The translations under genes were made by a program, and so were the position numbers. Shown in pieces: positions 8,069 to 56,454 of a DNA stretch of 56,454 bases (position 1 is the stretch's first letter; every line of letters begins with the position of its first letter). Location: NCBI GenBank assembly GCA_032718475.1, contig JAUCBJ010000125.1, positions 1 to 56,454 on the forward strand. Reading direction: 5' to 3'. Origin of the DNA: Nemertoderma westbladi (taxonomy: Eukaryota; Animalia; Xenacoelomorpha). The notes under the pieces are model-generated. The model was not told where the DNA came from. It saw nothing but the letters and a program-made list of their open reading frames with translations, and made no database searches.

Positions 8069-8076
8069 CCGCTCCC
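8069..8076 (-). promoter_or_regulatory. Putative polypurine tract of BEL element 1
   Basis: Minus strand reads GGGAGCGG immediately before the TG of the 3' LTR. Confidence 0.6.
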
Positions 8077-21999: not shown

Positions 22000-22188
22000 C
22001 AAACCAACCAGTATGATACATGAGATTCCGTCACGTTCCAGCTATGCGTATACGAGCATTAGTGATTATTATTACGCAATAATTTTTTTGTTTATACTGT
22101 AGTTCCCTACCGGCTAATCAACCAATCAATAAACCGAATTTAGGCTATTTTTCAGTTTAAGACCTGTATTATTTTTGAAAATATCTTA

Positions 22189-22229
22189 TATATAATCTCT
22201 TGCTTTAATCACAATTAATCATTTGTAAT
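22189..22229 (+). promoter_or_regulatory. Putative TATA + initiator promoter for the rightward Polinton genes
   Basis: TATATAA at 22189 and TCATTTGTAAT with its A 32 bp downstream. Mirrored by the minus-strand motif at 39316-39356. Confidence 0.6.
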
Positions 22230-22288
22230 GGTTTTAGTTTAAAAGTTTTTACTTTGTTTGTTTGATTTACAATAAAATAAATTAAATA

Positions 22289-22732
22289 ATGTCTTCTGAT
22301 TCCGATATGGTTATGCCAATAGTAAGGCATTCATTTTTTGCAGAAGATGGTCAAGCCTATATTGTTATTGATTATACAATTTACCGTCAGGCAGATGATA
22401 AATATAAAATTGAGTTTTCTGAAAAAGCCAGGAAAGTTTTAAGCTCAATCGATATTGATGCTTCAGATAATAGTATTCATCTTTTAGATTACAACCTGAA
22501 AGCTGAGCATGAGGGAAAATTAACCAACATCTTACTATTATCCATGATAGAGGGATTTATTGTTATTACACAATACAACAAAGCTGGTGAAAAGTTTGAA
22601 ATACGGCTAAATCGGCATAGCCCCTACGAAATTATGTCTTTCTTTATTGTAATGATTTCAAAAGAATCCTTTGTCGAAACTGAAGAATCAACGGATAATG
22701 TTGAATATGTTGATAATATCATTGATTCTTGA
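22289..22732 (+). CDS. Polinton hypothetical protein (147 aa)
   Basis: ATG-initiated ORF after the putative promoter; no motif recognised. Confidence 0.65.
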   Translation: MSSDSDMVMPIVRHSFFAEDGQAYIVIDYTIYRQADDKYKIEFSEKARKVLSSIDIDASDNSIHLLDYNLKAEHEGKLTNILLLSMIEGFIVITQYNKAGEKFEIRLNRHSPYEIMSFFIVMISKESFVETEESTDNVEYVDNIIDS

Positions 22733-22903
22733 CTTTTCCCCCTATATTATAAATATTTTATGATTATATATAAAATTTTACTATTTTTAAATAATCGAAA
22801 ATTGTAGTAGTATTTGTATATACAGTATAACAGTTTTGTTTGTTGTTGTTGTTGTTGTTGTGTATTGTGGTAATTATTTTCAATTTACTTTAAAATTTGG
22901 AAA

Positions 22904-23176
22904 ATGGATATGTTAAATGAAAAATGTCCAGTTTGCTATTCTAATTTATTGCAACAACATCGAGATTATTATAAATGTGAAAATAAACATGCAACTTGCG
23001 TACAATGTATAGTACAATATTCCGAAATGAATAATTATTGTTCTAAAATTTGTCCTATTTGTCGCGCATCCATATCTAAGTTTAATATAAAGTTGGCAAG
23101 ATACCAACCCTTTTATTGGAAAGAGCTTCGCAATATAACTTATATTTCTGCGAAAAGTAATGATCCTGGAGATTGA
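22904..23176 (+). CDS. Small RING-finger protein (putative E3 ligase)
   Basis: CPVC...CENKH..CVQC...CPICR, a C3HC4-like pattern. Confidence 0.8.
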   Translation: MDMLNEKCPVCYSNLLQQHRDYYKCENKHATCVQCIVQYSEMNNYCSKICPICRASISKFNIKLARYQPFYWKELRNITYISAKSNDPGD

Positions 23177-23575
23177 TTTACAATATTGGAGAATATTTTT
23201 TATAGAAACGTAGTTCGAAGGTGTTGCTATTATATTCCTTATTTTTTTAGCAGCGAACATAAAAAAATCATAAGCGCGAAATTCTCGGGAAGTGATTTCC
23301 AAACCGCCGATGTTACCTATCATTATTTCGCGTATAAAGATGCTCACCATGCTTGAAATTACATCAGTCTATACTATAATTGGAAATAGCACCTTTTGTT
23401 GCAGCGAGCGTCACATACTGTAGTTGTGTCATATGTTAATTAAATATACAGTACTCTAATATTATTGTAGTTCCATCAATTATTGTTATATACATAGTAA
23501 TGGTGATGGTTTATTGATATTGATATTGATATTATATTATATTATATTGTTGATATATCTTAATAATAATAATAA

Positions 23576-24259
23576 ATGGCTGACTTTAATTCAGGCCCAT
23601 ATAATTTAAACTTTCAAATGGGAACAAGTATGATAATTTCTGGCCCATCTGGTTCCGGAAAGTCAACCTTTGTGGGGAATTTAATTAAACACAAGAATGG
23701 CTGCTTCAACGAAGCCCCCTTGCGAGTATTGTATTGTTACGGGAGCAATCCACCGACTATTCCCGGTATTACTCACCTTTACAAAGGTTTGCCCGAAAAT
23801 ATAAATAGATTAGTCAATAGTCGAGATTTATTAATTATAGATGATTTGTTAACAGAAACTGAGTCCAGTACAGCATTAACTGTATTGTTTACTAAGGTAG
23901 CTCATCATTCCAATATATTTATTTGTTTTATAACGCAAAACATGTTTTACGGTGGGAAGCATAACCGCACAAGATCAATTAATAGCCATACTTTAGTATT
24001 AATGAAAAATCCGAGAGACAGTCTATCGGTTTTAAATTTCGCAAAGCAAATGTTACCAGGGCAGACCAAATTTTTAGTTGATTCCTATCAAGATGCAACA
24101 ATTGAGCCATTTTCACATTTCTTAATTGATTTACGACAGGAAACACCCGAACATTTGAGATTTAGATCGGATATATTTCGTAATCATAATTGTTACATTA
24201 AAAATTACATTAACTATAAACGTAGCGAAAATAATAATAATAATAATAATAATAATTAA
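23576..24259 (+). CDS. A32/FtsK-like genome packaging ATPase
   Basis: Walker A GPSGSGKST, Walker B LLIIDD, plus ITQN and KNPRD, typical of Polinton ATPases. Confidence 0.95.
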   Translation: MADFNSGPYNLNFQMGTSMIISGPSGSGKSTFVGNLIKHKNGCFNEAPLRVLYCYGSNPPTIPGITHLYKGLPENINRLVNSRDLLIIDDLLTETESSTALTVLFTKVAHHSNIFICFITQNMFYGGKHNRTRSINSHTLVLMKNPRDSLSVLNFAKQMLPGQTKFLVDSYQDATIEPFSHFLIDLRQETPEHLRFRSDIFRNHNCYIKNYINYKRSENNNNNNNNN

Positions 24260-24299
24260 TAATTAATATTTTGTAACAATTTTCAATAATGTTGCAACA

Positions 24300-24683
24300 A
24301 TGAATAGACTTGTGCAGAAATATTGAAACGAACTGGAATTTCTACGCAGCGCTACCCCTCAACAAAGAACTTATTTTATTAACCATACAGCCAGTAACGA
24401 ATTAATACGGCTCATTGTAAATACTGCAATAAATGTTCTAAAAGGTAACGTACAATTGTCCCCGCATTCATTTAGAAATATTCGCTGCTATAAGAAGGTA
24501 TTGAAATCCCTCAACCGTAAGACAAAAAATATATCAAGTTACAGAAAAAAGTTAAGCAATCAATCTGGAGGTATACTGCCGTTTCTAATACCCTTACTCG
24601 GCATTGGTGCAAAACTTGCCGCGAGTGCCGGTGCCGCTGCCGCTGGGGCTGCTATTGCGAAAAAAATTAACCGTGGGCGGTAA
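24300..24683 (+). pseudogene. Polinton basic core-protein precursor (PW/pX-like) with a premature stop
   Basis: ATG at 24300 is in frame with ORF 24456-24683, with one TGA at 24324-26. N.LKGNV.L motif, basic tract, QSGG-ILPFL putative protease site, then a hydrophobic/amphipathic peptide. Confidence 0.75.
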
Positions 24684-24694
24684 TAATAATAATA

Positions 24695-24865
24695 ATGGTT
24701 AAAACGGGAGTAACATTTAGAAAATTATATTTAGTATCGAGTAAACCGTTAGCTACTGATTTAAAACCTCAAGATATACCTAGAGTAAATAGTACAAAAA
24801 GAAAACCATTCAAAACATCAACTTCGAAAAAAATAATCAAAAAATTTCAGTTGTTCTTACGGTGA
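24695..24865 (+). CDS. Short basic ORF (56 aa, MVKTGVTFRKLYLV...), possibly truncated
   Basis: ATG follows a (TAA)n leader like other genes of the element and fills the gap before the integrase. Confidence 0.35.
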   Translation: MVKTGVTFRKLYLVSSKPLATDLKPQDIPRVNSTKRKPFKTSTSKKIIKKFQLFLR

Positions 24866-24901
24866 TGCCCTTTATAAGAGATTTGAATATACATATTACT
24901 T

Positions 24902-26008
24902 GTGGTTGCCGAAAAGATGCCACGCAAGATGAAACCGATTTTAAACCGAAGCTTAGACAAAAAACTGTCAAGAATTTATTTAGATCCTTCATCCCCTGCG
25001 GGTTTTGCAAGTGTCGCAAAATTAGCAAAAGCTGCAAACATCAAACCAGCACGAGCTCAGAAATGGTTGAGCGGGCAAAAGACATACACCCTTCACGCTC
25101 CACGTAGACAACATTATCCAACATCTAAAATATTTACGGGAGGCATAAAAGATATATATATGATAGATTTGGTGGATATGCAGCAATATAAATCGCAAAA
25201 TAATAATTATAACTATATATTAACGTGCATTGATGCCTTCAGTCGGCTTGCTTTTGCCTATGCTATGAAAACAAAAAAGGGTATTGAAATTATTAGTATA
25301 TTGCAAAAAATATTCCAAAAGGGAAAACCAAACAGAATCGCCACGGATCAAGGTTCTGAGTTTCTAAATAAATCTGTAAGGAAATATTTAGATACGTTAG
25401 GTATACAGTATTACGTAATGTATTCTGTGAATAAGGCGGCTATTGTCGAGAGATTCAACAGAACCTTAAAAACAAAGATGTTCAAAATTTTCACCCAAAG
25501 GGGAAATAATATTTGGATAACAATTTTACCTAAGCTTATCTCAGCTTATAATAGGTCGTATCATAGAACAATACAAATGACTCCCATTGAAGTTAATAAA
25601 TTTAATGAAACTGAATTAATGAATAGATTATATGGGAAATATAGACAGATAAATCACAAGAAAATAAAATTTAAAGTTGGAGATACAGTACGATTATCTA
25701 TCGCTCGTACTGCTTTTGCTAAAGGCTATCGAGAACAATGGACACGTGAATTATTTATTATTCATCGGGTCAGGTTGGATAGAGTACCAGCGGTAATGTT
25801 CGATATTAAGGACAGCACCGGAGCTATAATAAAGGGCTCATTTTATTCTCACGAACTCCAAAAGGTCCACCCGAATAGTAACATTTATCTTCCGATTGAC
25901 AAAAAAAATATTGACAAACTTAAAGAACGTGTACGCAATGGGAAGAAAGAATATTTAGTCCGATTCATCGGATCCAAGAAACAGTCCTGGGTCCAGCATA
26001 TTAAATAA
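24902..26008 (+). CDS. Polinton retroviral-like (rve) DDE integrase with C-terminal chromodomain-like region
   Basis: Motifs IDLVDM, IDAFSR, TDQGSEF and VERFNRTLK; FKVGDTVR and KGY...WT; C-terminal EYLVRFIG...SWV. Confidence 0.96.
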   Translation: MVAEKMPRKMKPILNRSLDKKLSRIYLDPSSPAGFASVAKLAKAANIKPARAQKWLSGQKTYTLHAPRRQHYPTSKIFTGGIKDIYMIDLVDMQQYKSQNNNYNYILTCIDAFSRLAFAYAMKTKKGIEIISILQKIFQKGKPNRIATDQGSEFLNKSVRKYLDTLGIQYYVMYSVNKAAIVERFNRTLKTKMFKIFTQRGNNIWITILPKLISAYNRSYHRTIQMTPIEVNKFNETELMNRLYGKYRQINHKKIKFKVGDTVRLSIARTAFAKGYREQWTRELFIIHRVRLDRVPAVMFDIKDSTGAIIKGSFYSHELQKVHPNSNIYLPIDKKNIDKLKERVRNGKKEYLVRFIGSKKQSWVQHIK

Positions 26009-26259
26009 GCTTAGGTTTATACTGTATATTAATTCATTTTGGTCGCATATGACCGTAATTAATCAATATTAACTCGAATGATATTACTATACTATATAGT
26101 TCATCCGCTTTAAATAAAGCCAGTAAAATATTGATCCCTCGCATATACTGTAGAAGATGCGGCGATGAACGTGGTCACAGATGTCTATAATTTATCATTA
26201 TACTGTACTGTATGTACAAAGGAGTCAAGTAGAGAGAGCGAGCTTAAATAATAATAATA

Positions 26260-27132
26260 ATGGCCACAGATACATATATCACTCTACTTTCAGATAGCTC
26301 ATTGAACACTTATCCCAATAATAATCCTAGTGAGTTTACTGTTGATTTAGCCGAAGAATTATATATTGGTCCAAATGCCAAAGTTGGACTTGCCGAACTT
26401 CAATATCAAGCAACATACAGTAATATTACGCTGCAAACTCAAATTTCGCTGTCAATCGGGGTAGATGCAAAAGATGCCAAATTATATAGTTTATTTCCTG
26501 GTATGCATAACTCTATTCAAGTGATTATTGATGATATAAATAAACTGTTTAATTCTGAAGCGAAATATAGAGATTTCGAATTCATTTTTAATACAAATAA
26601 TTCTAGAATTAAATTTAAATTTCCTAAAAAGTTGAAAAAAATACAATTAAGTCTACGCGGCGATTTAATACAAATTCTAGGCTTAAATCCGTTATTGGAT
26701 CGGAATCATCCGGATATTCCGAATTGGGATATATACAGTACCACTACAGTAGATGAATTAAGCAATATAGAACAACCGATATTAATTTTAAATTATAGTG
26801 GACCAAAAATTTCGGAAATTGGCATTTTAGATTTTCCAGCTCCCACAAATATAACACGTAATAAAGACACAATTTTCATATACACAGATATTATTAAGAG
26901 CTCATTTGTTGGCGACGCTTTAGCTCCGCTCTTAAGAACCTGCCCTTTAACGCAATTAAATCGAAAATATATTAATCACGAATACGAGAGCATTTGCTAT
27001 TTCCCATTGTTGAATAAAAAACTAAAAACAATATTAATTACTTTACGTGACGGCCAAGGCCAATTAATTAACTTCAGCGGAGGTCGCACTGTTATAACAC
27101 TTAAGTTAATACGGGGTGGCAGTGATGGATGA
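26260..27132 (+). CDS. Minor capsid (penton, PX-like) protein 1
   Basis: Motifs YITLLSDSS...YPNN, VGLAELQY, FIYTDII...VGD...PLLR and I.ITLRD..G.LINF. Confidence 0.9.
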   Translation: MATDTYITLLSDSSLNTYPNNNPSEFTVDLAEELYIGPNAKVGLAELQYQATYSNITLQTQISLSIGVDAKDAKLYSLFPGMHNSIQVIIDDINKLFNSEAKYRDFEFIFNTNNSRIKFKFPKKLKKIQLSLRGDLIQILGLNPLLDRNHPDIPNWDIYSTTTVDELSNIEQPILILNYSGPKISEIGILDFPAPTNITRNKDTIFIYTDIIKSSFVGDALAPLLRTCPLTQLNRKYINHEYESICYFPLLNKKLKTILITLRDGQGQLINFSGGRTVITLKLIRGGSDG

Positions 27133-27970
27133 ATTCTACGTAAGGCTGCCGAGTAACTCCTGTCCAATTGATTTTCCCCGCAATAGCGCTAGTAATTATC
27201 AGATCAACTTACATGGCGCCTTACCTATAAACCCAAACGAAAACTGGGTGGTAGGTATAAAAAGTATATTTTACTTAGCAACGTTGCCGTCCATATATAA
27301 CAATGTAGAGAATGTTATTTTATTAAAAAAAGGGAAAAAAATTATTGAGGATACACTTCCATCCGGTTTGTTCTACAGTATCAATGACATTATAGATTAT
27401 TTTAACACAGGGGCATTGAAACATAAATTACAAATAGTTGAAAATACTCAGCAAAATAGATTGCAATTTATTTTAGGGAAAGCGGTGCGAGAGTTATTTA
27501 TAGGTCAACAATTAGCCTATTATTTTGGCATTACTGAAAATAATCTCGGTGCGAATTTAAATCCAAATTTTAAAATTATTTTGAAGACGAAAAATAATAT
27601 AAAGGGTTATTTAATAAAGGTTATCGGAAATGAAGAAAAAACTTTCCAGATGGTATTTTTATGCCCCCAACCACCCAACTCTATTCCAGAACCTAAGTCG
27701 AACATGTACGTGACTACTAATATAATTGAAAATCAATATATTAACGATTTTGGCTTAGCTTTACTTCGTCGCGTGGCGATACCTGATGACGTGAAATATG
27801 GTAGTATAATAAATAAAGAATTTGCCAAGGATACAATTCATTATATCCCTGTAAAAAAATCATATAAGATAACATACATTCATATTGAAATAACAGACAA
27901 ACAAGGAAAATATTTGAATTTTGAATACGGGACAACTTGTATTACCTTACACTTTAAAAAAATAAATTAA
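27125..27970 (+). CDS. Minor capsid (penton, PX-like) protein 2
   Basis: Motifs FYVRLPSNS...FPRN, WVVGI, MYVTTNII...LLR, YIPV and IEITD..G..LNF.YG...ITLHFKK. ATG at 27125 overlaps the stop of penton 1. Confidence 0.88.
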   Translation: MDEFYVRLPSNSCPIDFPRNSASNYQINLHGALPINPNENWVVGIKSIFYLATLPSIYNNVENVILLKKGKKIIEDTLPSGLFYSINDIIDYFNTGALKHKLQIVENTQQNRLQFILGKAVRELFIGQQLAYYFGITENNLGANLNPNFKIILKTKNNIKGYLIKVIGNEEKTFQMVFLCPQPPNSIPEPKSNMYVTTNIIENQYINDFGLALLRRVAIPDDVKYGSIINKEFAKDTIHYIPVKKSYKITYIHIEITDKQGKYLNFEYGTTCITLHFKKIN

Positions 27971-27971
27971 A

Positions 27972-28538
27972 ATGGATTCCGATTTATTTCAAAGATACAG
28001 TAAACCTCAATATGGGGGTTCAGACTCTAACCTTGCTGTTTTTAAAGGCGGAAGAAGTACCAGAGGCTCGACGCAAGTTCCTGTTTTTCGAGGTGGTTCA
28101 TATATTGACCCTTACGGTCAACAAATTGGTGCATTTGGTCCAAACTTAAAACAACGTCGTTTTCAACGTTATCCTAGAGGTATGAGGACAAATCAACACG
28201 GGGAAGGTATATTTACAGACGCTTTATCTACATTGAAAAAATTTGGTAAACCATTAGCTAAAAAAGTGTTACAAAAAGCTTTACCATTTACCACAAAATT
28301 TATGAGACAACACGTAATACCAAAAGGCAAGCGGGTCTTACATCAGCAGGCTAATACAGTTATTAATAAAGCATTAAATAAAATGAAACCATCAACCAGA
28401 TCTGTTGTAGAAAAAGTTTATAGAGATTTAAAGCGACCGACTAGACAGCCAATGTCTATGAACATACCTCATCGACGTAGTAAAAAGAGAAATATAAAAA
28501 AAGGCAAACTGAAACACTGCGAAAAAAGTATTTTTTAA
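27972..28538 (+). CDS. Polinton core protein (PZ-like) with putative protease sites
   Basis: QYGG, QIGA and QHGEGIF motifs, an amphipathic basic helix and an Arg/Lys-rich C-terminus. Lies between mCP and MCP. Confidence 0.8.
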   Translation: MDSDLFQRYSKPQYGGSDSNLAVFKGGRSTRGSTQVPVFRGGSYIDPYGQQIGAFGPNLKQRRFQRYPRGMRTNQHGEGIFTDALSTLKKFGKPLAKKVLQKALPFTTKFMRQHVIPKGKRVLHQQANTVINKALNKMKPSTRSVVEKVYRDLKRPTRQPMSMNIPHRRSKKRNIKKGKLKHCEKSIF

Positions 28539-28540
28539 TA

Positions 28541-29800
28541 ATGTCAATTATTAAGGAATTAGATTTATTTTCTACACAACCAATACAGACTGAATTTAAA
28601 GCAAAGCATTATGAAACAATTTATCCAGTATCCAATCTCCGAACTGAATCTAGGGAGGTCACGTTCCTTGTCCCAATATCCAATGAATTCTATACGAAAC
28701 TGCAAGATGCGTTATTAATTACAAAATGTACAGTACGCTGGGATAGGCGACTTGAAAACTCTCATATATATATGCTGAATTACCCCGCTGAAACTATGTG
28801 GAGTGATATTAAAATAGACCTTAATGAGAAGCAGGTTGAAAATAGCAATAACCATTATTTCTACAAGTCGTACTTATCCAATTTACTATTTACAACTTAC
28901 GAGGATAAAAATGGGTTACTGGGGGCGGGCGGTTTTCAACAGCCTTTATCCGAACACGGAAATGAAATTAATGCTGGTGCGCATCCTATTGGCGATGCCT
29001 TTAGTAAACAATTGCAATTTGTAAGCGGGTTGACGATTGATTTTGATACTGAAACTAAAATAATACAACCTGGGTATGATTTAAGAATGCATTTTAGAAA
29101 AGTATCAAATTCGTTTATTTTTAAAATCACTCCAAACGCAAACGCCGTGACAAATCTTCGACTAGAATTAGATGAAATAAAGATTCTAATCCCTAGAATG
29201 GAGGTTAATCCTGTAATAGAAAGCAGTCACCTAAAAGGTTTAGAGAGTTACGATATTGAATATCAATTCCAAAAGAAAGAGGTGACTACATTTACTATTC
29301 CCGCGCAAACCACAAATTACACCCAAACAAACATATTTGATGGTAAAAAACCAAAATTAGTTATTATCGGCTTCATAACAAATAACGCTTATTCAGGAGA
29401 ATTAATTAGTAATCCATTAAAATTTGAACATTTTAACCTTAGACGCGCGGAACTGATTGTAGACGGTCTTCCAGTAGGGGGTGTAATATACGAGCCTAAT
29501 TTTACAGATGGAACATATATTTTTGAGTATACACAATTAATGAAGAACATTAATACATATATTAACGGTTATGGGGGAAATAATATAGACCATGAAACCT
29601 ACTTAGCTAATTGTCCCCTCCTATCCTGGGACCTAACCACTGATGGTTATGTTAGAGATCCGCAACCCTCGATATATACTAACGGACAATTAAAATTAAG
29701 ATTTGCCGAACCGCTGGTTGAGACCGTAAATGTAATCGTTTTTAATATTTATGATCAATCATTAAGTTTAAATAGCAGGAAAGAAATACATATCGATTAA
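28541..29800 (+). CDS. Double jelly-roll major capsid protein (PY)
   Basis: N-terminal ELDLFS..P.Q, and P..VIIGF....AY.G....NP..F.HF; 419 aa. Confidence 0.92.
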   Translation: MSIIKELDLFSTQPIQTEFKAKHYETIYPVSNLRTESREVTFLVPISNEFYTKLQDALLITKCTVRWDRRLENSHIYMLNYPAETMWSDIKIDLNEKQVENSNNHYFYKSYLSNLLFTTYEDKNGLLGAGGFQQPLSEHGNEINAGAHPIGDAFSKQLQFVSGLTIDFDTETKIIQPGYDLRMHFRKVSNSFIFKITPNANAVTNLRLELDEIKILIPRMEVNPVIESSHLKGLESYDIEYQFQKKEVTTFTIPAQTTNYTQTNIFDGKKPKLVIIGFITNNAYSGELISNPLKFEHFNLRRAELIVDGLPVGGVIYEPNFTDGTYIFEYTQLMKNINTYINGYGGNNIDHETYLANCPLLSWDLTTDGYVRDPQPSIYTNGQLKLRFAEPLVETVNVIVFNIYDQSLSLNSRKEIHID

Positions 29801-29802
29801 GT

Positions 29803-30258
29803 ATGTTATCTACAGAGGACCTTGATATGTTTCCAGTGGGTGGTCACTATTTGGGAGCGTTTCCAGCTAACAAATTACCTAAATTAGATAATAATAATAA
29901 GCGGAGGGATTATGGGCTAATAGTGAATACCGATAAAGAGCATCTACCCGGGATTCATTGGATCGCTATATATATACGAGATAATGAAGCTGAAGTATTT
30001 GACTCGTTTGGACCAAAATATCCAAATAGATGTATCGAAAAATGGCTTGAGAAAAATTCCGCAAGATGGCGTACTACCCGCAAACAATTTCAAGACCCCA
30101 GGAGGACCACATGCGGTCTGTACTGTCTCTATTACTTAGTAAATCGAATTGACACAAACTATCCAATGAGGGCGTTTACAAATAATGTGGAAATAAATGA
30201 AATAATATTATATAATTGGCTTGTTAATTATTATAAAATAAACCAACAAACGTTGTAA
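29803..30258 (+). CDS. Adenain/Ulp1-like maturation cysteine protease
   Basis: NTD....PG.HW, FDSFG and Q......CG.YC give the catalytic H/D/Q/C set. Confidence 0.95.
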   Translation: MLSTEDLDMFPVGGHYLGAFPANKLPKLDNNNKRRDYGLIVNTDKEHLPGIHWIAIYIRDNEAEVFDSFGPKYPNRCIEKWLEKNSARWRTTRKQFQDPRRTTCGLYCLYYLVNRIDTNYPMRAFTNNVEINEIILYNWLVNYYKINQQTL

Positions 30259-30289
30259 TTAATCATTTAGCTTTTATGTATCAGATAAA

Positions 30290-30892
30290 ATGGATAATAT
30301 TATTTTTGTTGATTTTCAATACTATAAGATAGACAATAAGGAGTATCCGGTAGTATTTAAAGAATTTGCTATATTCGATTCTAATTGCACCAAAACTAAT
30401 GTAAAGACGTTTTTAATTAAAGGCCCACCTAATATTAAATTATCGGCATTAGATGCAGCCCACGTAAACAATTTACGAGATATGACTTCTCACTTGCCCT
30501 GGAACTATGGGGACATTTCGCAAGACGACTTTAAAAAATATATGAAGAGACATTTAAAATATAAAAAAAATATTCATATATTTGGGTTGATGAAGCGGAC
30601 AATATTAAACACCCAACTCGATGTTCTCGCACCAAATTCGGTTGAGAAATTGGGAATATATAAGCAATATCACGAGTATTTAACCCCATGCCGGTTCCAC
30701 GACCGATTTACTACAATAGAAAATAAATGCACGTTTCACTTAAACACAAGGGATAACTGTCTGCGGTACTGCTCAGCAAAACGTGTTGGCGGATTTGAGT
30801 TGCTACACTTTTTCATGAGAAAGCGTTTAACTGCAACTGTTGATGTCGATGATAAACAGAAAGAAATAACTGCGGTGGAAGATGTACTGTAG
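30290..30892 (+). CDS. DnaQ/DEDD-fold nuclease-like protein with putative ECHC zinc site
   Basis: IFVDFQ...KEFA, H.LPW..G-like segment, and C-terminal CxxH...C. Confidence 0.6.
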   Translation: MDNIIFVDFQYYKIDNKEYPVVFKEFAIFDSNCTKTNVKTFLIKGPPNIKLSALDAAHVNNLRDMTSHLPWNYGDISQDDFKKYMKRHLKYKKNIHIFGLMKRTILNTQLDVLAPNSVEKLGIYKQYHEYLTPCRFHDRFTTIENKCTFHLNTRDNCLRYCSAKRVGGFELLHFFMRKRLTATVDVDDKQKEITAVEDVL

Positions 30893-31524
30893 GTTTACTC
30901 TAAGCATGTAATGTGATGGGATAATATAATTGTTTTAATGTCAATAAAAATAATAAAAACATTAAAATCTATTTTTAATATCTCAGTTTGACTGAAGGTG
31001 TAGGGCTTAAGTTTACACTTACAAACACACCGTACCTACCGGTAGCGGGCTTTTGCATCAGAGTTTAACTACCAGTAGCTAGCTAGCTGATTTTACTACA
31101 TATACCATACCAACAACACTAAACTGAGTTGTAGAACAGCAGAATGGCTCCGACGGCAACCACAGAGCTTTAGCTTTACCGGTACCATACTTATTAATAA
31201 TAAAATTAAATTAAGTCGACATGGGGGGGTTTGTGAATGCAGCATTAGAGGGGGCCCTCCTAACAATAGGCCTACTGGTACCGGCACTGTAGCACTCTTG
31301 TACCTGTATACTTGAATAGAGCAAGAGCATACCAGACTGCCAGTTTCTTTGATTTAAGGATTACGCTATTACACTTGAATGCTTCCAATTTTCTGTTTAC
31401 AACTTTAATTGGTCTAATCTACATTACTGCTGGTGGGCTACTACTGTCGCATAGGTAAGCCTATACAGCTATAGTTAACTTTATGCGGGGCCCTTTTTCG
31501 AATGTTGACCCAATATGGTTTATG

Positions 31525-31921
31525 GTTAACCTTTAGTACTCGCGGATAGGTAAGGTGCACTTTCATTCGGTTAGGCCTATAGGCTTAATGACTACTCCTC
31601 AACTGAAAGTTGACTAGCTCATTGATACAATAGGTGTGGTTAGGTACCGGTAGGGCTATAGGACCTATAAAATCCCCTCACACTCTCTGTTGTATGCTTC
31701 TTTACAGTTAACCTTTAGAACTCTCGAGCGCCATCATTCAACCAGTCATATAATGACTCCACTCGGATACAATAGGTGTGGCTCTCGGTATACCTAACTA
31801 ACTAAGCCTATATAAAATCCACCTCATTCTCTGTTACTAACATTCACTCTATGTTGACGGTGGGACTATATAAAACATAGTTAATTTATTTATGTATTCG
31901 CTTTTTTAATTATATATAAAA
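31525..31921 (+). repeat. Degenerate direct repeats with four TATAAAA boxes in the Polinton central non-coding region
   Basis: Units 31525-31691 and 31707-31835 share GTTAACCTTTAG, TAATGACT, GATACAATAGGTGTGG, TATAAAATCC and CTCTGTT. Further TATATAAAA copies at 31867 and 31913. Confidence 0.75.
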
Positions 31922-32018
31922 TAGATTCGGTCTACTAAGTTTTATAACAATAACTGATAGGCCTAACAATAACAATAACAACAACCCTAAATTTATTACT
32001 GTATTAGGTCTATACTTT

Positions 32019-32403
32019 TTATAGTCCTATATGTGAGTCCTCCTGTAGAGTTTCCTCCATTACCGGTCTTTGCGTTGGTATATTGAAGTGAAGTGTGTCA
32101 TCTCTATCATTCTCCCAATTTTCGTTAGAGGGTGAGCTTCCCGATATTCGCGATGGTTGTATCTTTATAACTAGCGAGAAATCTTTTGAAATTTCAACTG
32201 TTGTAGGCGATAAAGGTAGACCATCTACTTGACCAACTTCATATTCTATCGAAGTGAATCCAATCTCGAATTTTTTGTTTATATATATCGTAACTCCATC
32301 TCAGCAATATTTGATGCAGTGAGATACGTTTCATCGCATGATTGCAATTCGATTTTTATACTACACTTTTCAACTCACGGTTATTGAAAAAGGCAAATGT
32401 CAT
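32019..32403 (-). pseudogene. Possible frameshifted Polinton gene
   Basis: About 93 open codons (DGVTIYINKKFEIG...DSHIGL*) can be joined to ATG 32403 by two frameshifts. Minus-strand TATATAA near 32570. Confidence 0.35.
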
Positions 32404-33120
32404 CTTTGAGTTGACAGTTGAGGTAAGTTGTCGTTGTCGTCGTCGTCGTCGTAACTAGGTACCGGTACTAGAAAGAGTATCTTTAAATTGAATAGGTACC
32501 GTAAGCCTACTGATATTTTTTTTTCTTTTGTTTAACAAAATTATAGTTCACTGTCAGAAAAATTGAGTTTATATATATTTTTGTAGAGGGTCACAGATGT
32601 GTACATTACAAAATTCTCATAGTTAACAAAATGCACAACATAAACCTTTCCCATGCGGATTAGCGATATATGCTATGGTCGTTGTTCTATTCTGAATGTA
32701 GGGAGATGCATAGCGGATGTTTTAATAATAATATGTGCCGGTATACAGACTAGTAACAGATAGGAGGACATCGTCTTTGACTATGAATACCAGCACATAC
32801 CCCTAATCTTTTTCTCACTGAGCTTAGCGTTGCCTGCTGTACACACGCACAAGTAACAGATGCGCTATTGTAGCTTACTCGTGAGCAACAATGCTTAGCT
32901 AGCTAGCTAGCCACGGCTGCTGAGTATACTATGCCTACTTGAGTGTTACAAGCAAATGCTCTACTGAAGTTGGTTAGTTAATTTCCCATCAAACTAGTTG
33001 TTGATTTAAAAAAAAAATTCATAAATTTCTTCTCCCTTCAATTTAATATATATATATATTTTACAGTAAAAAATCTCCACCACCACCAAACAGCAACAAC
33101 AACAATAAATTTCATTCGTA

Positions 33121-33702
33121 CTAATTATATTTTACATCAAAAACCCTCACACCAAACAATAATAAATTATTAACCAGTTTGTTGAAAATAGGATAATATA
33201 TATGAAATTTAAACGGGGAACACATTAATGTACATTTACCGGTGTAGAAGCTGCATACAACAACATTATTACTTATTCTGACTTTACAGTTATTGAATAT
33301 TTCAGGCTCGTATGAAATTTCTAGTTTAACATTATCAAATATAACATAAAACCCGATATTGTTTATAAGTAACCTATAAATTACAGTATCGATACTAAAA
33401 ATATAAGTACACAAATTGATTGATTTAAAAATCAAATTAATGTTTGTTTTTTCGAATATATGCTTTTTCACTTTATTAAAATTATATTTTCTACCGAGAA
33501 TTGTTATTCGACCATTTGTAAACATTAATATAGTTGCACCAAATACCTTATATATAAACTGATTAGGTTTGAGTACAATTTTACCATTCAATTGATTTTT
33601 TAATTCTTTTAAATTAAGTCCATAAATGATCTGCTTACAACTTATATTTTTATTTACTATTTGATAATTCATCATCAACACCGTCATCTTTTTGTTCTTC
33701 AT
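33121..33702 (-). CDS. Divergent TATA-binding protein (TBP)-like protein
   Basis: Two-repeat TBP core pattern: IVN...SC / ATILMFTNGRITILG and SINLC / SYEPEIF...VVCSFYTGKCTL. Confidence 0.8.
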   Translation of the reverse strand: MKNKKMTVLMMNYQIVNKNISCKQIIYGLNLKELKNQLNGKIVLKPNQFIYKVFGATILMFTNGRITILGRKYNFNKVKKHIFEKTNINLIFKSINLCTYIFSIDTVIYRLLINNIGFYVIFDNVKLEISYEPEIFNNCKVRISNNVVVCSFYTGKCTLMCSPFKFHIYYPIFNKLVNNLLLFGVRVFDVKYN

Positions 33703-36700
33703 AAATTGGTATATTTGATATTTTTATAGGTTTTTTGAGGTTTGTTTTATAGTGCCCCCAAGGAAGCGATTGATTTTTATTAATCCAATAAAGTTTATCG
33801 TCAAAGCTACTGAGAGCAAATTTATTTTGCTTTAAGGTATAAATACGATGTAATTTAGATTGAAATCTGTGTATGTTTTTTTTTATTTCTTCATTTGAGT
33901 TATATGCTTTTAAATATTCTTCATGTGTAATATTCGTTTCCACAACAGCTCTTGTAATACCTTTTGCTCTACGAATATTTTTATTATTCCATTCCAAAAT
34001 TGAATATAATTTTGGTCTTAAAAATACTGCTTGTTTAATTTCACGTGGGGCTAGTTCGTCTTTACAGTAATAGAGCCTGGATTTATTTTTATCACTGTAG
34101 AGAGGGTGATCCTTGGGGTAATTGGATGTATCTAAAATATTATTTTTAATTAATGCTTTAAAAAAAATATTCTGCGATGTATTATAGTAACAACCTATCA
34201 AAGAGTCAGTGTCTGACGCAACAATTTCAATACGGCAGTTTAATTCTTTCTCAATAGGTAGCAATTTATTGTAAAACAGATCATACATATCCAATTTAGC
34301 CAAGTCCAACACAGTGCTACCAATAAATATAGGCTTATCGAGAGTTACAGAGTCTTTCACTAATAAATGTCCCGATAGTGTATTATTGTATATTATAAAT
34401 TGTTCATGATTAATACGATTTACCAATTGATCGCATTTATCATTGCTATTTGTAATACGAAAGTTACATCGATCTCTTATCTTTTCTATTGATTTGCCAA
34501 ACAGTGAATTATTGAGCAATTTCGCAACAGCTGTTTCAATGTAACTTTTTGCTAGGCGCCTTTGATTAATATTAAAATCAATGTAATTTTTAAATACAAA
34601 TTCTTGTTGAAAAGAATATAATTTATGTAGTTTAGTAACAATTAATCCATGTTTTATATAAAATTTTAACAGTTTCAAATGTAAATGATAAAACTCTTTA
34701 TCAAATTGTGTCAGCATGAGTTTTGGTATAGGCATTCTATATTTACGGGAGGTACCTCTTTGTATTGACAAGTTATTAAATTGTTCCCGCATATAAGGCG
34801 AAAGCATTGATTCATTTATACTTAAATGCTCAGGGGCTAACGGTAATTGTAATGTTTGATCGTGAATAGCCTTGGGATAATTTAAATCACATATTAAAAA
34901 ATATCCAGTAGATCCATCAATGTCTAAATCTCCCAAGTACTCGATTAGTTTTTCTGGAATTGCATTCTCTAAATGTTTAATACTTACTTCTTTGAATTGT
35001 GAGGTGGGTAGTTTTTTACTTAAATTCCCAGAATATAAAGAGTTGAAATCAATATTAAAAATATGGCATTCTTCCTTAGTTGAATCATATGTACTTGTAC
35101 CTGGTATATTTGATTCTATATAATGCTTTCGACAAAATGAAACACCACCCCTAATTGATTTTTCAAAATCTCTATATGTCTGATAATCCTTTATTAATTC
35201 TATTTTACATTTATTATATTTTAGCGCGCAATCATAGGTAAATGATGCGATACTACAGTAAAAAACCGCTTCTAAATCGTAATTTTGTTTACAAACATTC
35301 CTAAAATTCTCAAATATATCGGCAAGCAAACAAACATCGAGTTTTAAATAGGCTAAAAGATAATCTTTGAGATTCACGCAGTCGAATTCAACCCATGATA
35401 TTCCCGCAAACCTATAATCTTCAATTGTGCATGTTTTTGACTTAAGTTACTAAAAAAATTATTTATAGACGGCAAACCAGTATCATTAAATTTATTAATA
35501 TCTGTCAAGTACTCGTATGGAAATACTCCTTTCCGTTTAATTGTTGAGTTATTCAAGTTTGGATAAAAATATTTCATTTCTTGTAGAGTAATAGGTAAAA
35601 TTGAGCTTATATCATGACTGGCTACATCCTTTGTTGAACACTCAACTAAATTACTTAAAGAAAAGCTTAAAAATTGATATGTGTCTAAGAAACGTAACTC
35701 AATTTTCTTAGAAGTGTTTTTAATTGGGATAAACGCACTCAGTGAAATATATCGTTCTGTATTTCTCGGTATAACCTTTATATCCCAATCTGTGTATTTC
35801 TTATCTCTAAATCCGCTTTGTAATATACAATGTACATCATACTGATTGGCATTGTGCCCACAAAGTACATACAGGTATCGTTTCAACGATAAACTTCGGT
35901 TACAACTATTACAGGCTGCCGCAATATATTTACCTGTAATATGTGAATGATGTCTGTTTTTCCCTACTTTATTATTTAAAGTAACATTACAATAAAAACA
36001 AAATTTTGCTTGTTCAAAATTTACAAAATCAATATTAGTAAATGACATAGTTTTATGAGTGTATATGTCTGACCAACAACATAATTCAGTTATATCAGTA
36101 TATAATGAATCTAAGAAATCTTGAATACAATTATTATTATTTGTCTTTACAAATGTTTTCAAATGACATTTTGGAGGGTCAATTAATTCAGTATTGGGAA
36201 CAATTAAATAACTCACAGCACACGGTATATGCTCCTGTATAATTTGATTATTAACTGACGGTTGTAAGATACATTCTATATCAAAGTAGGTGACAAACAA
36301 TGGGGATAAGGTTCTATCTAAATTTGTAAAACTAATGTGTGTTCTTTTTTTAGGTAGTGTCTCTCGCTGACTTCTTCCTTGGTAGCAAGCGAGACGGTGT
36401 TGATGAAGAACTTCCGCACGAAAAAAATGAGCCAAACACCTTTCGCAATATTTCCTATTTTGGATATGAAGAGCTTTCGTATTCAGCAATCGATTCAAGT
36501 TAGTTATGGAAACATAATGATTCTGTTTAGGTACATTGTTATTTTTTACTACAAGTAATATATTTAATAACTGTTTATCGGGTGTAATTTTACTAAACGG
36601 AGGTTGTCTTAATATAGATACCGGGGTGCGTTTTTTGTCGTTATTCCAACATAGTAAATTAATAATATATTTTGAATTTTGTTTTTCAAAAAGTTTAATA

Positions 36701-37704
36701 GCTAGCTTCCACTCTGTTGGATAATCTTTGTTCCCATTGTCAAAAATGAAATGACTCATATAATTTTTGTACGACGAAGTACGGTTTTTGTGATCTTTCA
36801 CTTTGCTACTAAATTTTGCGGATATAATTGCCCATTTAAAACAGTTATTATCAGCCGATTTTACATTTATAACACATCGTTTAACTGATAAAGCCTTAGG
36901 TAATTCCATATATCCATGCCCCTTATATAGTAACGAGCTACACTTAGATTCAGCTAATTTAATTTCAACCCTTAATAAAGATTTAATACGCCACCCCGAA
37001 CCACGTGTGTTAAAGATGGCTATTTTTTGTAATATAATTTCCACAACATACTCAAACCATGTCTCAAAACTTTGCGGTGAATCTACAGTATTAATAGCAC
37101 CACCGGAAGAATTAAAATAAAAGGTTTCCAATTGTTCACCTTGTGAAAAATGTGATCTGTACATTAATACATTTAGACCTAACCACAGTCTAAGAACATT
37201 CACATCTTTCAATCTGTCTAATATTAACTGAAGAATATTACCTCGAATTTGCGTTAATGCTGTTTCTACATCGGGATAATCTCTAGAAGTTGGGAGGTCG
37301 TGGACATAAATTTCAAGACGATTATCGTGAGCTTCTTGTTCCCTCGTAAAAATTGTTGCGCATGTACCAAGAGCCACCCTTAAGTTTTTTCTGGATATTA
37401 TATTTTTATGTTGCGAAAATTTACGCTTTCTTGTGTAGTAACATTTCAAGTGACAATCGTGTCGTAGATAATCGTCATATGTATACTCTTTATTACAGGT
37501 AGAACAAGTCAATTGATAGGTGCGGAACTCCATTTCTTTACAACCAGTAGTTGTAAAATGTCGTTTACAAATTTCGCTGCATGAAGTCACGACATGACAC
37601 TTTAAACAAGAATAACTTTCAAAATGTGAGCGTAGGTGGCGTAAATAATTATGTCTAGTTACATTCATATGACAGAATGAACAACATATTGTTATTTTAT
37701 CCAT
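33650..37704 (-). pseudogene. Protein-primed family B DNA polymerase (pPolB) split by a 1-bp frameshift
   Basis: N-terminal C2H2-like fingers; DNNCF...HY (vOTU-like). ExoI FDIE, HNH/EndoVII-like insert CFYC...HSH.TG....ACNSCN, ExoII HNA..YD and ExoIII YLKLD. Polymerase motifs DFNSLY, KLLNNSLFGK and SDTDS. One extra base in the T5 run at 35434-35438 restores QKTCTIEDY...W..F.C.NLKDY. Confidence 0.95.
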
Positions 37705-37893
37705 GTTGAAGTTTGTTTAGATAAATAATAATAATAATAATAATAAAATATCTCCAAAGATTAAAATAAAATGAAATGAAATGTTATTGACTACATCTAA
37801 ACATTTATATGCTAGCGAGGGAAATAATTTTAAACCAATCACCAAACACATATGACTATTGGAAACCGTAAAGAGTTTAACTTATGATTAGGC

Positions 37894-38953
37894 TTACATG
37901 TTAGGATCTGGTTTCCATGGAGAATTAGTAACAGGCTCTACTAGAACTGGGTTACTGACAACTTTCTGTTTCTTTGCAGGTGATGCGTTGGTAAATTTAC
38001 TCGATGATCTTGGCTTCCAAGGTAATATTTCAGGAAAGACCTGTTGCGGTTGAGAGCAGCTCTCTTCAACATCCGGATTAGGTGATGGGATCTCTACGAA
38101 CGCTTTAGGTTTATCCAAAAGGACAAAGCCGTCAACGTGGGCTTCAGTAAGAGAAACACCATCCAGCGATTCTTTGAGAAAACTAATATGGGCTTTATCA
38201 TTCAAGTAATGCAACTCGATAGAATTTCCGCCGACACCTACTTCAGTAGAATTATCGGTGTTGGTGATAATAATTTTTTTATTATTGGTTTTAATCATTT
38301 TGAGACGGTCTGATAATTGAATGATATTTTTATCAAAAAGATGCTTGTCTGTTTCAGCAACTTGGTTGTCCCACTCTCGCAACAAAACAGTTAGTTCCTG
38401 TTTTGACAAATTGAAACCTGTATAATAGTTAAAACCAACACTATTCAACGTATCTGAGGCTGATTTTCCATAAGCCAACATAGTTGGTTCCTTTAAAAGC
38501 TGTTACAAATCCAATAAACTCTGGATTTGATAATTCAATGTAGAATTGATCGCTAATAATCTCTAGCGGTGGAGAGAGAAATTGCAATAATTTCCCTCTG
38601 TATTGAATTAGAACTTCAGTAAAAGCTTTGTTGAGAACTTTACATTTGCCTTGTTTCTGAACGTAAACATCACCCGATGTGGGGTTGATGGAAATATTCA
38701 AATTTCCCCGCGCAAAACGAAGAGTGGGATATATCCTACCTGGTATAATTGCTGGTCTGGATTGATGTTGGTTGTTGTTGGTTGTTTCTAGAATGTCTAA
38801 CATATAGCGGGTATCTTGATGGGAAAAACAAATTGATTCGTTGTCCTCCTGAGATTCCACAATAAAATACTTGCTGTGAACGACGGTACAAGTATATTTA
38901 TTGTAAGTAAATTTCCAGCTATTTGTTGCTCCAGTTTTTTGCGTTAAGGCCAT
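37894..38953 (-). pseudogene. PC4-like ssDNA-binding protein split by a frameshift
   Basis: VTAFKGTNYVGLWK at the end of ORF 38441-38953 and GFNLSKQEL..L in ORF 37894-38481 together form a PC4 pattern. Shift near the T4 run at 38464-38467. Confidence 0.65.
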
Positions 38954-39017
38954 AATAATAATAATAAATACGAAAAATATTACAAGTGATAAATTTTAAA
39001 CTGTATCGCTGTAATAA

Positions 39018-39301
39018 ATTGACACCATAGTTCTCACTCTAAAATTGTGTTTGGTCGGAAGACGACGCCTAAGAAAAATGTTGCTGAGTTCGACATTAGG
39101 TATCGACACAAAAACAAAAATCGGGTGAGACACGTAGCTCAGATTTTCGTTTTTAGGTCGATACCCAATGCTGGAATCAGTATCATTTTATGAGGCGTCG
39201 TTTTCCGACCAACGAATATACAACGAGTAAGATAATGTATAAATTATTAAGGAAATAACACAATGTCAGAGTGAGAACAAAAAATTAGATATGGTATCAA
39301 T
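39018..39301. repeat. Long imperfect inverted repeat (hairpin) flanked by 21-bp direct repeats
   Basis: TTGGTCGGAAGACGACGCCT (39051) pairs with AGGCGTCGTTTTCCGACCAA (ends 39212), with further inner and outer arms. ATTACAAGTGAT(A/G)AATTTTAA at 38979-38999 and 39316-39336. Confidence 0.9.
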
Positions 39302-39315
39302 ATATTACCATGAAG

Positions 39316-39356
39316 ATTACAAGTGATGAATTTTAATAAAAGCATTCAGTTATATA
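39316..39356 (-). promoter_or_regulatory. Putative TATA + initiator promoter for the leftward PC4-pPolB-TBP cassette
   Basis: Minus-strand TATATAA (39356-39350) and TCACTTGTAAT with its A 32 bp downstream, the same spacing as the left promoter. Confidence 0.6.
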
Positions 39357-39738
39357 TATAAAAATTTGCGATGTGGCATAGTCAACGAAGAAGAGATGGT
39401 ACGTGTCATAATCATCAACGAATAAGAAAAGAGATGGGGAGCAACGTGGATGAATAGCTGGCTGGTTGATTGCGTGGATAGGAAATACGTGAAAGAATAT
39501 GAATCATAGGGTTGTGTGTGTGTGCGTGTGTGTAATAATCAATAATTATTATAATAAAAAACGCACAGTATAATGTTAGCGGTGGAAGCCTTTCAATATG
39601 GCACAGATGCTGCGGGATCGGTTAGCTTGAGTAACTACTATGGAAATGTTGTTCGTATACGTGTAGCTGGAACGTGGCGGAATTTCAACACGTATCATAA
39701 TAGCGTTGGACTACTGGTAGGCCGCTTGGTTGGTTGGA

Positions 39739-40259
39739 TTGATTTGGTGACAGCAGTCGTGGAGTTGGCAATCGATATAATATTGGGTGGGGTATATGGG
39801 TGGTGATGCGTGTAGATGACCACGTCATCGTTAGTAGTGTTATGTATGTGGCTAGCTGGCTGGCTAGCTAGCGGTGGGTAAATAATCGTTGAGTTGGTTG
39901 GTTGGCAATCGATTCGATATAATATAATAGCGTAGTGAGGGGTGGGGGCTAGCCATGCGTTGAGAAGTTAGGTTACGCGAAGATGAATATGCGATGGTTG
40001 GTTGATGCAACGACACGAATCAATACTCGCGGGTGGTAACAGTTGTCGAGTAAGGCAGGCATCGTGAGGTTAGGCTACGCGTAGGTGATAAGCAACGATT
40101 GGTTGAAGGCAACGACGCGAATCAATACTGTTGGTGACAGATGGTCATTAAACACCTCGATTTAGCGCAGAAATTTGGCATTTTTTAATTGCCTCCGAGA
40201 TGCAGCCCGTAGCCCAAGCTAGGGAGGAGTTGCGTGAGATCTATGCTTCTCCTACTACT
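39739..40259 (-). repeat. Right TIR of the Polinton
   Basis: Reverse complement of 21473-21999; ends CCTACTACT. Confidence 0.95.
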
Positions 40260-40432: not shown

Positions 40433-40451
40433 TAGAAGCTATATCCGTTAT
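40433..40451 (-). promoter_or_regulatory. Non-tRNA primer-binding position, complementary to an LTR-internal site (candidate self-priming PBS)
   Basis: Minus strand after the LTR reads ATAACGGATATAGCTTCTA. The LTR plus strand at 7623-7641 reads ATAACGGATATACGTTCTA. Confidence 0.6.
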
Positions 40452-41591
40452 TGTTTGCGCTTTTAAGACCTTTGGCAGTTTAACCTGCCAAATTGGGATG
40501 TCTTTTAGATGATAGATAGTCTTTAGCCTATGACGAGTATTTGATACACTACATTAGCCGAAACCAGTCTATGCGCAATCATTCACCCGCTGGATATACC
40601 CGGGAGACTGGATTCGGAAGCTTAACTTGATTGAGGTGCAAGCCTACTGTATTATTCGACTGATCGTAATATATATAATCTCTGACAAATATTATTTACT
40701 TTCGGGAAATATTAACAGTTCCTTTAGGACGTGGCGCTCTAAATATATAAACAGAGTTATGACTTAAACCAGACGCAACGGGATGGCTATAGATTCACAT
40801 ATATGGCGCATTCTTTAGGAAATGCTTCGTTATCAATCACTATCATACACAATGCTGCACAATGCTGCACACCAATCTGCCGACCTTCACTAATTTTAGT
40901 CACACACAAAGAGAATAACAGACAATACATGTAGGGCCTATAAAATAGCATTAGATTCACTTCAAACCAATTAACATACGTCGCAATCGTTTATATGTAA
41001 CCGGTCTCTCTAACCTTTAGTATATCAAGAAGATTGGGGTGTCTGACTATTGATCAGTATTCCAATATAATATTTCATCAACAAATATAATGAATAACAG
41101 ACAGCAAAAGCAGTAATGATTAGTTAATTGAGTGAACTAAGTGTGATTACGGATATACGTTCTATAATTAAGCCTACTAATGTTAAGCTAAAGACTGAAA
41201 CACGGAGGTTCCACGCCGGTGTTGTAGGCTGTGGAAGAAATCACATACACTGACTCAACTTCACGAGTTTCTATCTACCATCTAACACAGAGGCAAAAAA
41301 CGCTCTGATTGGTCGACCGAACAAAGAGAGAACAAAGGACAAAGAAATGTTCTATGTGGCAATATCAGCTGTTAGCCGTCGTCATGTTAGTGACACTGTT
41401 TTCAAGAGGATCCGGCTTATTGCGTCACAAAATTGCGGATTATGTCCTCTAAAGTACGCATACAGAAGAAATGACTTTTATGTCCTCTAAAACACCAGTA
41501 CAGTAAGGACACGGCCCTTTTATGCCTGGTAAACCAACTACAGAGTACTTTACGGGGAAAATAACCGGCTAATTACGCAAAAGCTTTTACA
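40452..41591 (-). repeat. 5' LTR of BEL element 1 (1140 bp)
   Basis: Direct repeat of 6960-8068, followed by the TSD ATTAG. Confidence 0.95.
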
Positions 41592-41895
41592 ATTAGTAAG
41601 TCATCATATCCTCCCATTCATTATTCCATTATATTACTGTGAATTGTAATAATTGTATACTTAGTGAATATATTATACTTGTGACCTCCTACATACTGTA
41701 GTCGAGTCATGTTTGTTTAGTTTAAGAAGATATAATTTGTTTCCATTTTCGTCTCTATTATTGTTTCTATAGTGTTTTGTGTAATAAAAAACTACAAACT
41801 TCGAATATAGGCCAATAAAAAAAACTATAAAAAAAAAGCCAATAAAAAAAAACACAGTATCAATTAGGCATAGGCAGATAGGCCTACCCTAATTT

Positions 41896-56200: not shown

Positions 56201-56375
56201 AGTATCCCCGTTCGTGAGATCTCTCGTCGACCTCCCGGTTAAACTCCACTGTCCTTCTTCCCTCTTCTGACTGGGCTCGACGTCTCGTCGCTCGCCCTCT
56301 CGCGACGTCAACCTCTCTCTCTCTACTCGGTCGCACGCCGCTGGGGATACTCGCAACCCCCCTACTATTCTCCAT
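50230..56375 (-). pseudogene. BEL/Pao gag-pol broken by at least three frameshifts
   Basis: Overlapping ORFs: gag (KFDG...Y..F, 54405-56375), protease/RT (LVDSGA, RFLW, 52933-54435), RT/RNase H (YVDD, FSDAS, 51791-53047) and integrase (GVDMFGP, SDNGTNF, 50230-51849). Confidence 0.92.
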
Positions 56376-56454
56376 CGCCGGGTGCTGCGGTTCACCTAAT
56401 TCGCCCCGCGCATTATCCGCCGACGCTTGTGGGACACTCTTTGCCCCCCCCCCC

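Follow-up and report, generated by a model that had tools for sequence, protein, structure and literature searches.

The window analyzed here (the whole stretch of 56,454 nt from Nemertoderma westbladi) contains a young BEL/Pao retrotransposon that occupies 41591-6960 of the minus strand (Table 1). Its two LTRs share 1092 aligned matches against 13 mismatches and are ~99% identical. The open gag-pol frame was predicted by Pfam to encode DUF1759, zinc knuckles, a protease, a reverse transcriptase (RT), Peptidase_A17/RNase H, an integrase including its zinc domain, and DUF5641, and the two overlapping frames upstream of it are likely the frameshifted start of gag. The nearest proteins were 40-45% identical over RT/RNase H and contained the same domains; the named ones among these hits came from cnidarians, bivalves, an echinoderm, tunicates, crustaceans, a nemertean, a bryozoan, and fish. 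By its proteins, LTRs, target site duplication, and polypurine tract, the element belongs to BEL/Pao (Belpaoviridae), and its domain content and order, its LTR length of 1.1 kb (0.2-1.2 kb in the family profile), and its short polypurine tract are like those of the genus Semotivirus (PMC8742986). The region between pol and the 3' LTR (8070-11315) comprised ~3.2 kb with short frames and a 165-nt spaced duplication (10474-10768), as well as a frame of 229 aa that had no Pfam match (8848-9537). The leader contained a tandem duplication of ~290 nt with 90% identity (20805-21377).

The leader was also interrupted by a Maverick/Polinton-like insertion, which has terminal inverted repeats of at least 419 nt that start with AGTAGT and a 6-base target duplication with one difference. 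It encodes an integrase, an ATPase-like protein, a capsid-like protein, and a DNA polymerase B region that is spread over two frames. Three contigs of sequencing run X1 continue across the insertion point without the insertion. Other parts of the window harbored a second, distant BEL/Pao element on the minus strand (50230-56454), which is frameshifted, has its 5' end beyond the window, and branches near the base of the clade described below. An uninterrupted frame with an Ashwin domain (3461-4048; Pfam E 3e-14) is likely a host gene, and no relatives of its product were found in the protein search. Three further regions (4825-6111, 43968-45548, and 46902-47888) contained two non-LTR-RT-like frames, recognized by eye, and one frame with a fragment of a DDE_Tnp_1_7 transposase at its end.

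Table 1. Features of the BEL/Pao element and of its putative priming region, with positions in the window.
Feature	Position	Strand	Remarks
5' LTR	40452..41591	-	1140 nt, TG..CA
3' LTR	6960..8068	-	1109 nt, TG..CA; 13 mismatches and one indel region relative to the 5' LTR
Target site duplication, 5 bases	41592..41596	-	Identical copy at 6955-6959
Short polypurine tract	8069..8076	-	Precedes the 3' LTR
Open gag-pol frame, 2015 aa	11316..17363	-	Domain and frame search
Two overlapping upstream frames, 376 and 257 aa	17324..19205	-	No Pfam match
Maverick/Polinton-like insertion, 18.8 kb	21473..40259	.	In the BEL leader, 192 nt past the LTR; outside the priming site
Non-tRNA primer binding site	40433..40451	-	Directly after the 5' LTR end (40452)
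3' LTR copy of the complementary segment	7623..7641	-	12/12 anchored at the first post-LTR base; 17/19 overall
Upstream primer half	41151..41164	-	7 perfect pairs (41157-41151), 2x2 internal loop, 5 pairs (41164-41160)
Candidate splice donor GTAATC	41145..41150	-	Weak, T at +5; rank 21 of 88 GT sites by score
Candidate distal acceptor CAG (TAG in the 3' LTR)	40485..40487	-	Predicted intron 41150-40485, 666 nt
LTR portion of predicted exon 2, 33 nt	40452..40484	-	First 4 bases complete the 11-pair helix
Alternative proximal acceptor	41011..41017	-	AAG at 41017-41015, then GTTA; predicted intron 136 nt
8-pair hairpin over the distal acceptor, unspliced RNA	40471..40492	-	z about -3.8 against mononucleotide shuffles

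According to the ICTV profile of the Belpaoviridae, reverse transcription in this family starts from a host tRNA (Arg or Gly) that binds an 18-base site, and the replication of BEL/Pao elements is described as poorly understood (PMC8742986). In contrast to that profile, neither this element nor the related clade shows the marks of host-tRNA priming, and an 18-base site complementary to a host tRNA was lacking here. The sequence-only reading of the window had pointed to the absence of TGG directly after the 5' LTR; this was confirmed, as the first TGG lies at offset 138. No tRNA gene was found in the window, and no Rfam family matched the post-LTR site. The same reading had placed a complement of the site inside the LTR, and this also held: bases 40451-40440 pair perfectly with the 12 bases at 7634-7623, and the 17/19 match of the longer segment was reached by 0 of 5000 dinucleotide shuffles of the LTR. 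A perfect run of at least 12 bases occurred in 3 of 5000 such shuffles with offsets 0-5 allowed, and none of the ~13,400 element-internal 12-mers had a perfect complement in the LTR. The duplex between the LTR segment and the site stops exactly at the LTR boundary, as had been claimed. These results, a self-complementarity far above chance and the lack of a tRNA-type site, suggest that the element very probably primes reverse transcription with its own RNA.

The perfect 12/12 match belongs to the 3' LTR allele only, which is likely a private allele and does not lie at the 5' end of the transcript. The copy in the 5' LTR (41164-41146) pairs with the site at 16 of 19 positions, with one extra difference at 41148 that the earlier reading had seen correctly. 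The 5' allele at this position is probably the common one in the family, as estimated from a variant listing for two sequencing runs together with 40 of 237 rows of a contig comparison. In the contigs of the two runs, neither the primer site nor positions 41148 and 40487 had a listed variant of at least 25%, and the 30 variants listed were all located at 40505-40995, inside the predicted intron described below; this listing left out three variants (40577, 40864, and 40970) that reach 72-99.9% in the same run. The sequencing runs share one organism label, and the best run may be the source of the window itself.

Relatives of the element were fetched with a 52-protein alignment, which provided the best 80 of at least 616 metagenome loci, and 53 loci from genome bins containing animal DNA were added to give 133 loci in total. 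Ten prokaryote genome bins (G001-G010) each carried BEL/Pao elements, which points to animal DNA in these bins. Viral contigs contained no relative of the polyprotein, and 26 exact viral-contig matches to a 16-base pattern were dismissed as chance, their alignments with the LTR not exceeding 35 bases at 80%. Relatives whose LTR ends were fixed by repeats were of two kinds, those with TGG (tRNA-type) sites and those with non-TGG sites. The contiguous LTR complement in non-TGG loci had perfect runs of at most 9 bases, with energies mostly within the shuffle range, and an interrupted primer, split by an intron, was therefore considered. Each of these non-TGG LTRs had a GT motif resembling a donor as well as an acceptor rich in pyrimidines, and their post-LTR sites corresponded to the bases before the donor followed by the bases after the acceptor.

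A test of this pattern on ten non-TGG loci used LTR ends that were preset from repeats and shifted by at most 3 bases to a CA (L092 was set by eye and L058 was uncertain), and donors and acceptors were scored from textbook frequencies, blind to the primer site. Perfect runs of 10-15 bases across the joint were obtained in 7/10 loci, compared with 0-3/1000 same-element control sequences, although these ten include the LTRs where the joint pattern was first noticed and the later tests weigh more. The donor ranked 1-2 of its LTR in 6/7 of these loci and the acceptor ranked 1 in 5/7. The misses were L081 with one mismatch, which is third from the primer end, L025 with an offset of 4 that was beyond the scan (12 bases were found later), and L058 without a match. 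Among the TGG controls, 1/9 gave a run, of 6 bases only.

A first wide scan was noisy (38/114 loci versus 15/114 controls, with false hits in outgroup L097, L098, L106, L119, L120, L125, and L128) and was replaced by a local rule, which was applied to the 102 of 133 loci that had at least 600 bases upstream of the match (71 non-outgroup and 31 outgroup). "Non-outgroup" denotes absence from a list drawn mainly from a tree. The local rule hit 20/71 non-outgroup loci, many of whose contigs may not reach the LTR, versus 1/71 in the reverse complement and 1/71 in the reversed sequence. The outgroup gave 0/31 hits, with 0 and 2 in its controls. Both scans of many loci favor a G at donor position +5, whereas the loose ten-locus scan does not.

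Curation by hand from the inspected LTRs and the scan hits yielded 35 loci, 31 of them with perfect runs (10 bases in 5 loci, 11 in 20, and 12-15 in 6) and 4 with one mismatch or wobble. In the 31 perfect-run loci, the site pairs perfectly only with the exon-exon joint of a predicted GT..AG intron inside the LTR, which runs against the earlier proposal of a contiguous LTR primer as in Tf1; self-priming itself was upheld, but not in the contiguous form in which it had been put forward. The 31 loci have 24 distinct 10-base cores, each matching its own joint, and the cross-pairings that reach 10 bases (22/930) all fall inside four core-sharing groups. A G at donor +5 was present in 31/31 and a helix that begins on GT or AT of the site in 28/31. 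Predicted introns range from 37 to 1022 nt; exon 2, measured in 21 relatives, is 51-200 nt long and contains AATAAA or ATTAAA in 18/21. The joined form was present in none of the 35 loci. The complementarity, whose conservation among relatives had been named as a check in the earlier reading, is kept, with changes on both sides, for instance between the close kin L084 and L085 of one bin, which differ at two paired positions. An intron of only 37 nt was predicted in L055 (181-217), with a 10-base joint match. The first base of the L077 contig coincides with the final base of its predicted acceptor (1-20 and 7270), a point at which an assembly would fork if spliced and unspliced forms coexisted; this may be chance.

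Eighteen further stretches contained one spliced locus, L210 (G003:C58), which had been held out; its LTR end is fixed by the repeat and the target duplication, and an 11-base run lies over its top-scoring donor (null 0/500). The other stretches comprised five TGG loci without a long run (L206 repeats L121), two with non-LTR flanking repeats (one 9-base run, null 26/500), nine without an LTR pair, and one without an RT match. L210 carries a TGG one base past the LTR, yet its own splice joint matches the site over 11 bases; a TGG near the LTR end can thus mislead. Taken together, a primer formed across a splice joint is well supported in the sequences at the level of the clade and is considered highly probable there.

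The N. westbladi element has a weaker version of the same arrangement. Contiguous pairing of its 5' LTR with the site breaks at the GT of 41150 after 7 bases. These 7 bases, followed by the 4 bases after the AG of 40485 or of 41015, would form 11 perfect pairs with post-LTR bases 2-12 (40450-40440). An 11-base run across GT..AG was found in 8/1000 null sequences at loose thresholds, and AG followed by GTTA occurs twice downstream of the donor versus 0.25 expected. The predicted probability of the helix was 0.91-1.0 when spliced to 40485, ~0.54 when spliced to 41015, and at most 0.02 when unspliced, in a weak test by which only 12/21 spliced relatives reach 0.5. The substitution at 41148, which the earlier reading treated as a defect, is likely the family allele and lies at +3 of the candidate donor, where it is the consensus letter. 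The distance from the candidate donor to the LTR end is 699 nt, and spliced relatives have 153-1110 nt. In three runs, single contigs depart from the window sequence directly past the donor, at 41144-41145, and another contig does so shortly before the distal acceptor, at 40489 (24-base side, weak); these points mark the borders of the longer predicted intron.

Several features of this element speak against splicing: the T at +5, the lack of a strong donor in either LTR, an exon 2 of 33 nt that is shorter than all 21 measured in relatives, the absence of AATAAA/ATTAAA from the predicted exon 2 and from the rest of the LTR, and a helix that in the spliced form starts one base in and not on AT, where the contiguous helix of the 3' allele starts. 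The element therefore has one trait of the splice-joint clade, the perfect complement of 10-15 bases over a GT..AG joint (11 bases, with either acceptor), and is without the other, a donor with G at +5 combined with a poly(A) hexamer in exon 2. On balance, the primer of this element appears somewhat more likely to be built by splicing out the predicted 5' LTR intron than to arise otherwise. The hairpin over the distal acceptor could not form after splicing and could help to keep the 3' LTR unspliced; such a hairpin was not general among the 21 relatives examined (z -2.2 to 1.5). Two other arrangements were rejected: a donor around LTR position 160 combined with an acceptor immediately preceding the primer was judged by eye to give poor pairing, and the donor itself was poor, and trans-splicing of a host leader conflicts with the location of the upstream primer half in each element's own LTR.

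In the proposed cycle, transcription would start upstream in the LTR, host splicing would join the two primer halves, and the joint would fold onto the post-LTR site. By analogy with Tf1, RNase H would then cleave immediately 3' of the helix, and the resulting 3' end would be directed into the LTR end. First-strand synthesis would cover exon 2 only, and this DNA would transfer to the 3' LTR via the sequence that lies between the cleavage point and the poly(A) site. Such a cycle would be possible if, in terms of exon definition, a cap-proximal donor were used and the twin donor that closes a multi-kilobase exon were skipped. The 3' LTR on the same RNA would have to stay unspliced, otherwise the intron would be lost; two intron-less relatives, L032 and L068, accordingly look like products of intron loss. 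Their contiguous complements of 11 and 10 bases are followed by AATAAA, with 125-222 nt after the primer, and both are nested among spliced loci in the tree. With every cycle, the primer would serve again as template for the post-LTR site, which would be a DNA record of the spliced joint, and matched changes at the joint and the site would follow from this recopying. The primer seems to come from an internal position, as the earlier reading had suggested, and not from the capped end. In several relatives, TATA-like motifs recognized by eye precede the primer by ~40-220 nt, and the frequent run length of 11 bases would then need a second cut or a closer start.

A quick-search tree of RT/RNase H (49 rows, 506 columns, LG+G4), which contains only unnamed loci and host-named proteins, placed the element as a long branch just outside a core clade with 98% support, with supports of 82-86 at its own level. 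The spliced L077 and the TGG-type L017 and L034 branch at the same level. In L017 and L034, a TGG-type site lies five bases past the LTR, indicating tRNA priming that was either kept or regained. The element matters as an early branch and may show a step between contiguous and spliced primers.

The strongest competitor of a spliced primer is a contiguous, unspliced self-primer, in which 41157-41146 would pair with the post-LTR site across ~690 nt and RNase H would cut internally, the element being intron-less either at a pre-intron stage or after intron loss. This is possible but on the doubtful side. It agrees with the early-branching position, with the lack of a strong donor in both LTRs, with the contiguous 10-11 base primers of L032 and L068, and with the 12/12 pairing of the 3' LTR allele, which runs from offset 0 and begins on AT as in relatives. 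However, the primer would be supplied by the 5' LTR, which is mismatched third from the 3' end with an allele that is likely common. If the site is recopied from the primer, as inferred from Tf1, such a family-wide mismatch should not persist and is therefore hard to square with a contiguous primer, although L081 is mismatched at the same place. Furthermore, the ~690 nt to the LTR end are 3-5 times the distance in L032 and L068, which have AATAAA close behind the primer, and the unspliced RNA has a low predicted helix probability (at most 0.02), albeit in the weak test described above.

Priming in trans by a host tRNA fragment or a small host RNA, with the LTR complement serving only as a structural helper, is improbable. 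Half-tRNA priming is known in Copia lineages according to the available sections of PMC6317226, and the TGG-type L017 and L034 branch at a similar depth; nevertheless, there is no TGG within 138 nt, the site has no Rfam match, and the 24 different cores of the 31 relatives match their own joints, as a fixed set of host RNAs would not. A chance or relic complement without a priming role, to which the 18.8-kb leader insertion in this copy might point, is least probable of all and is largely refuted by the shuffles (0/5000 at 17/19), the abundance of the family with the site unchanged in the listed variants, the ~99% identical LTRs with an intact target duplication, and the same layout in 31 relatives.

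Self-priming has precedents outside BEL/Pao. The available sections of the literature describe it for Tf1, Tf2, Tj1, sushi, and Tcn1 and propose it for Copia TAR (PMC6317226, PMC4600332, PMC5341516, PMC3601003), and in Tf1 RNase H releases the primer by a cut that falls between bases 11 and 12 of the RNA duplex (PMC7175516, in part). Like Tf1/Tf2 of Schizosaccharomyces pombe, Tj1, Tf1/sushi elements in general, and plant Tcn1, the N. westbladi element has no tRNA site, and as in Tf1/sushi ~11 bases of its own LTR RNA would pair right after the 5' LTR (PMC7175516, PMC4600332, PMC5341516, as far as their accessible text goes). Its site complement to LTR-derived RNA has the length of at least 10 bases that is typical of Tf1/sushi, with 12 contiguous bases for the 3' allele and 11 across the joint for the 5' allele. 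On the other hand, Tf1/sushi elements are Ty3/gypsy with chromovirus-type proteins, whereas the domains here are BEL/Pao, so that the element works like Tf1 without being a member of that group. Unlike in Tf1/sushi, moreover, a predicted intron divides the primer in 31 relatives and may do so here, and the primer seems to be located well within the transcript. The statement in the sequence-only reading that the Tf1 site also starts with ATAAC is correct according to the available part of PMC11042837. This likeness is probably coincidental, as the relatives have no more than the first two paired bases in common (GT/AT, in 28/31 perfect-run loci).

Loss of the tRNA site has parallels in other superfamilies. 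Plant Ty1/copia TAR elements (Houba, Osr-1) have lost it, and self-priming is predicted for TAR (PMC6317226); fungal GalEa has lost it independently and has a conserved hairpin (PMC5445492). In contrast to the element studied here, the accessible sections on both report no splicing, and the GalEa hairpin is without an LTR complement (PMC6317226, PMC5445492). Other odd primer sites, likewise without primer splicing in the text available, have been described (PMC5445492, PMC4558846, PMC6934838). Term searches of the main BEL/Pao survey (PMC3118150) found no mention of primer, PBS, intron, splicing, or tRNA, and those of a mollusc survey (PMC6238403) and of the Sinbad paper (PMC554778) gave nothing on priming. 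The open-access literature that was searched provided no report of self-priming in BEL/Pao, in line with what the sequence-only reading had supposed, and none of a splice-made primer in any retroelement.

The nematode element Cer7 reportedly encodes its own primer. By a slight preference, the comparison of LTRs and primer sites points to a broad BEL/Pao lineage in aquatic animals, with this element among its members, that would hand primer synthesis to the host spliceosome. If this is true, reverse transcription needs one LTR to be spliced while its twin on the same RNA stays unspliced, and only an RNA spliced in the 5' LTR and unspliced in the 3' LTR would be copied into a complete element. 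Splicing would then act as a switch for retrotransposition and give the host a new point at which to control it, and the lineage would offer a direct test of position-dependent splicing. It would also account for the many BEL/Pao elements that seem to be without a primer site, and would provide a simple rule for their annotation.
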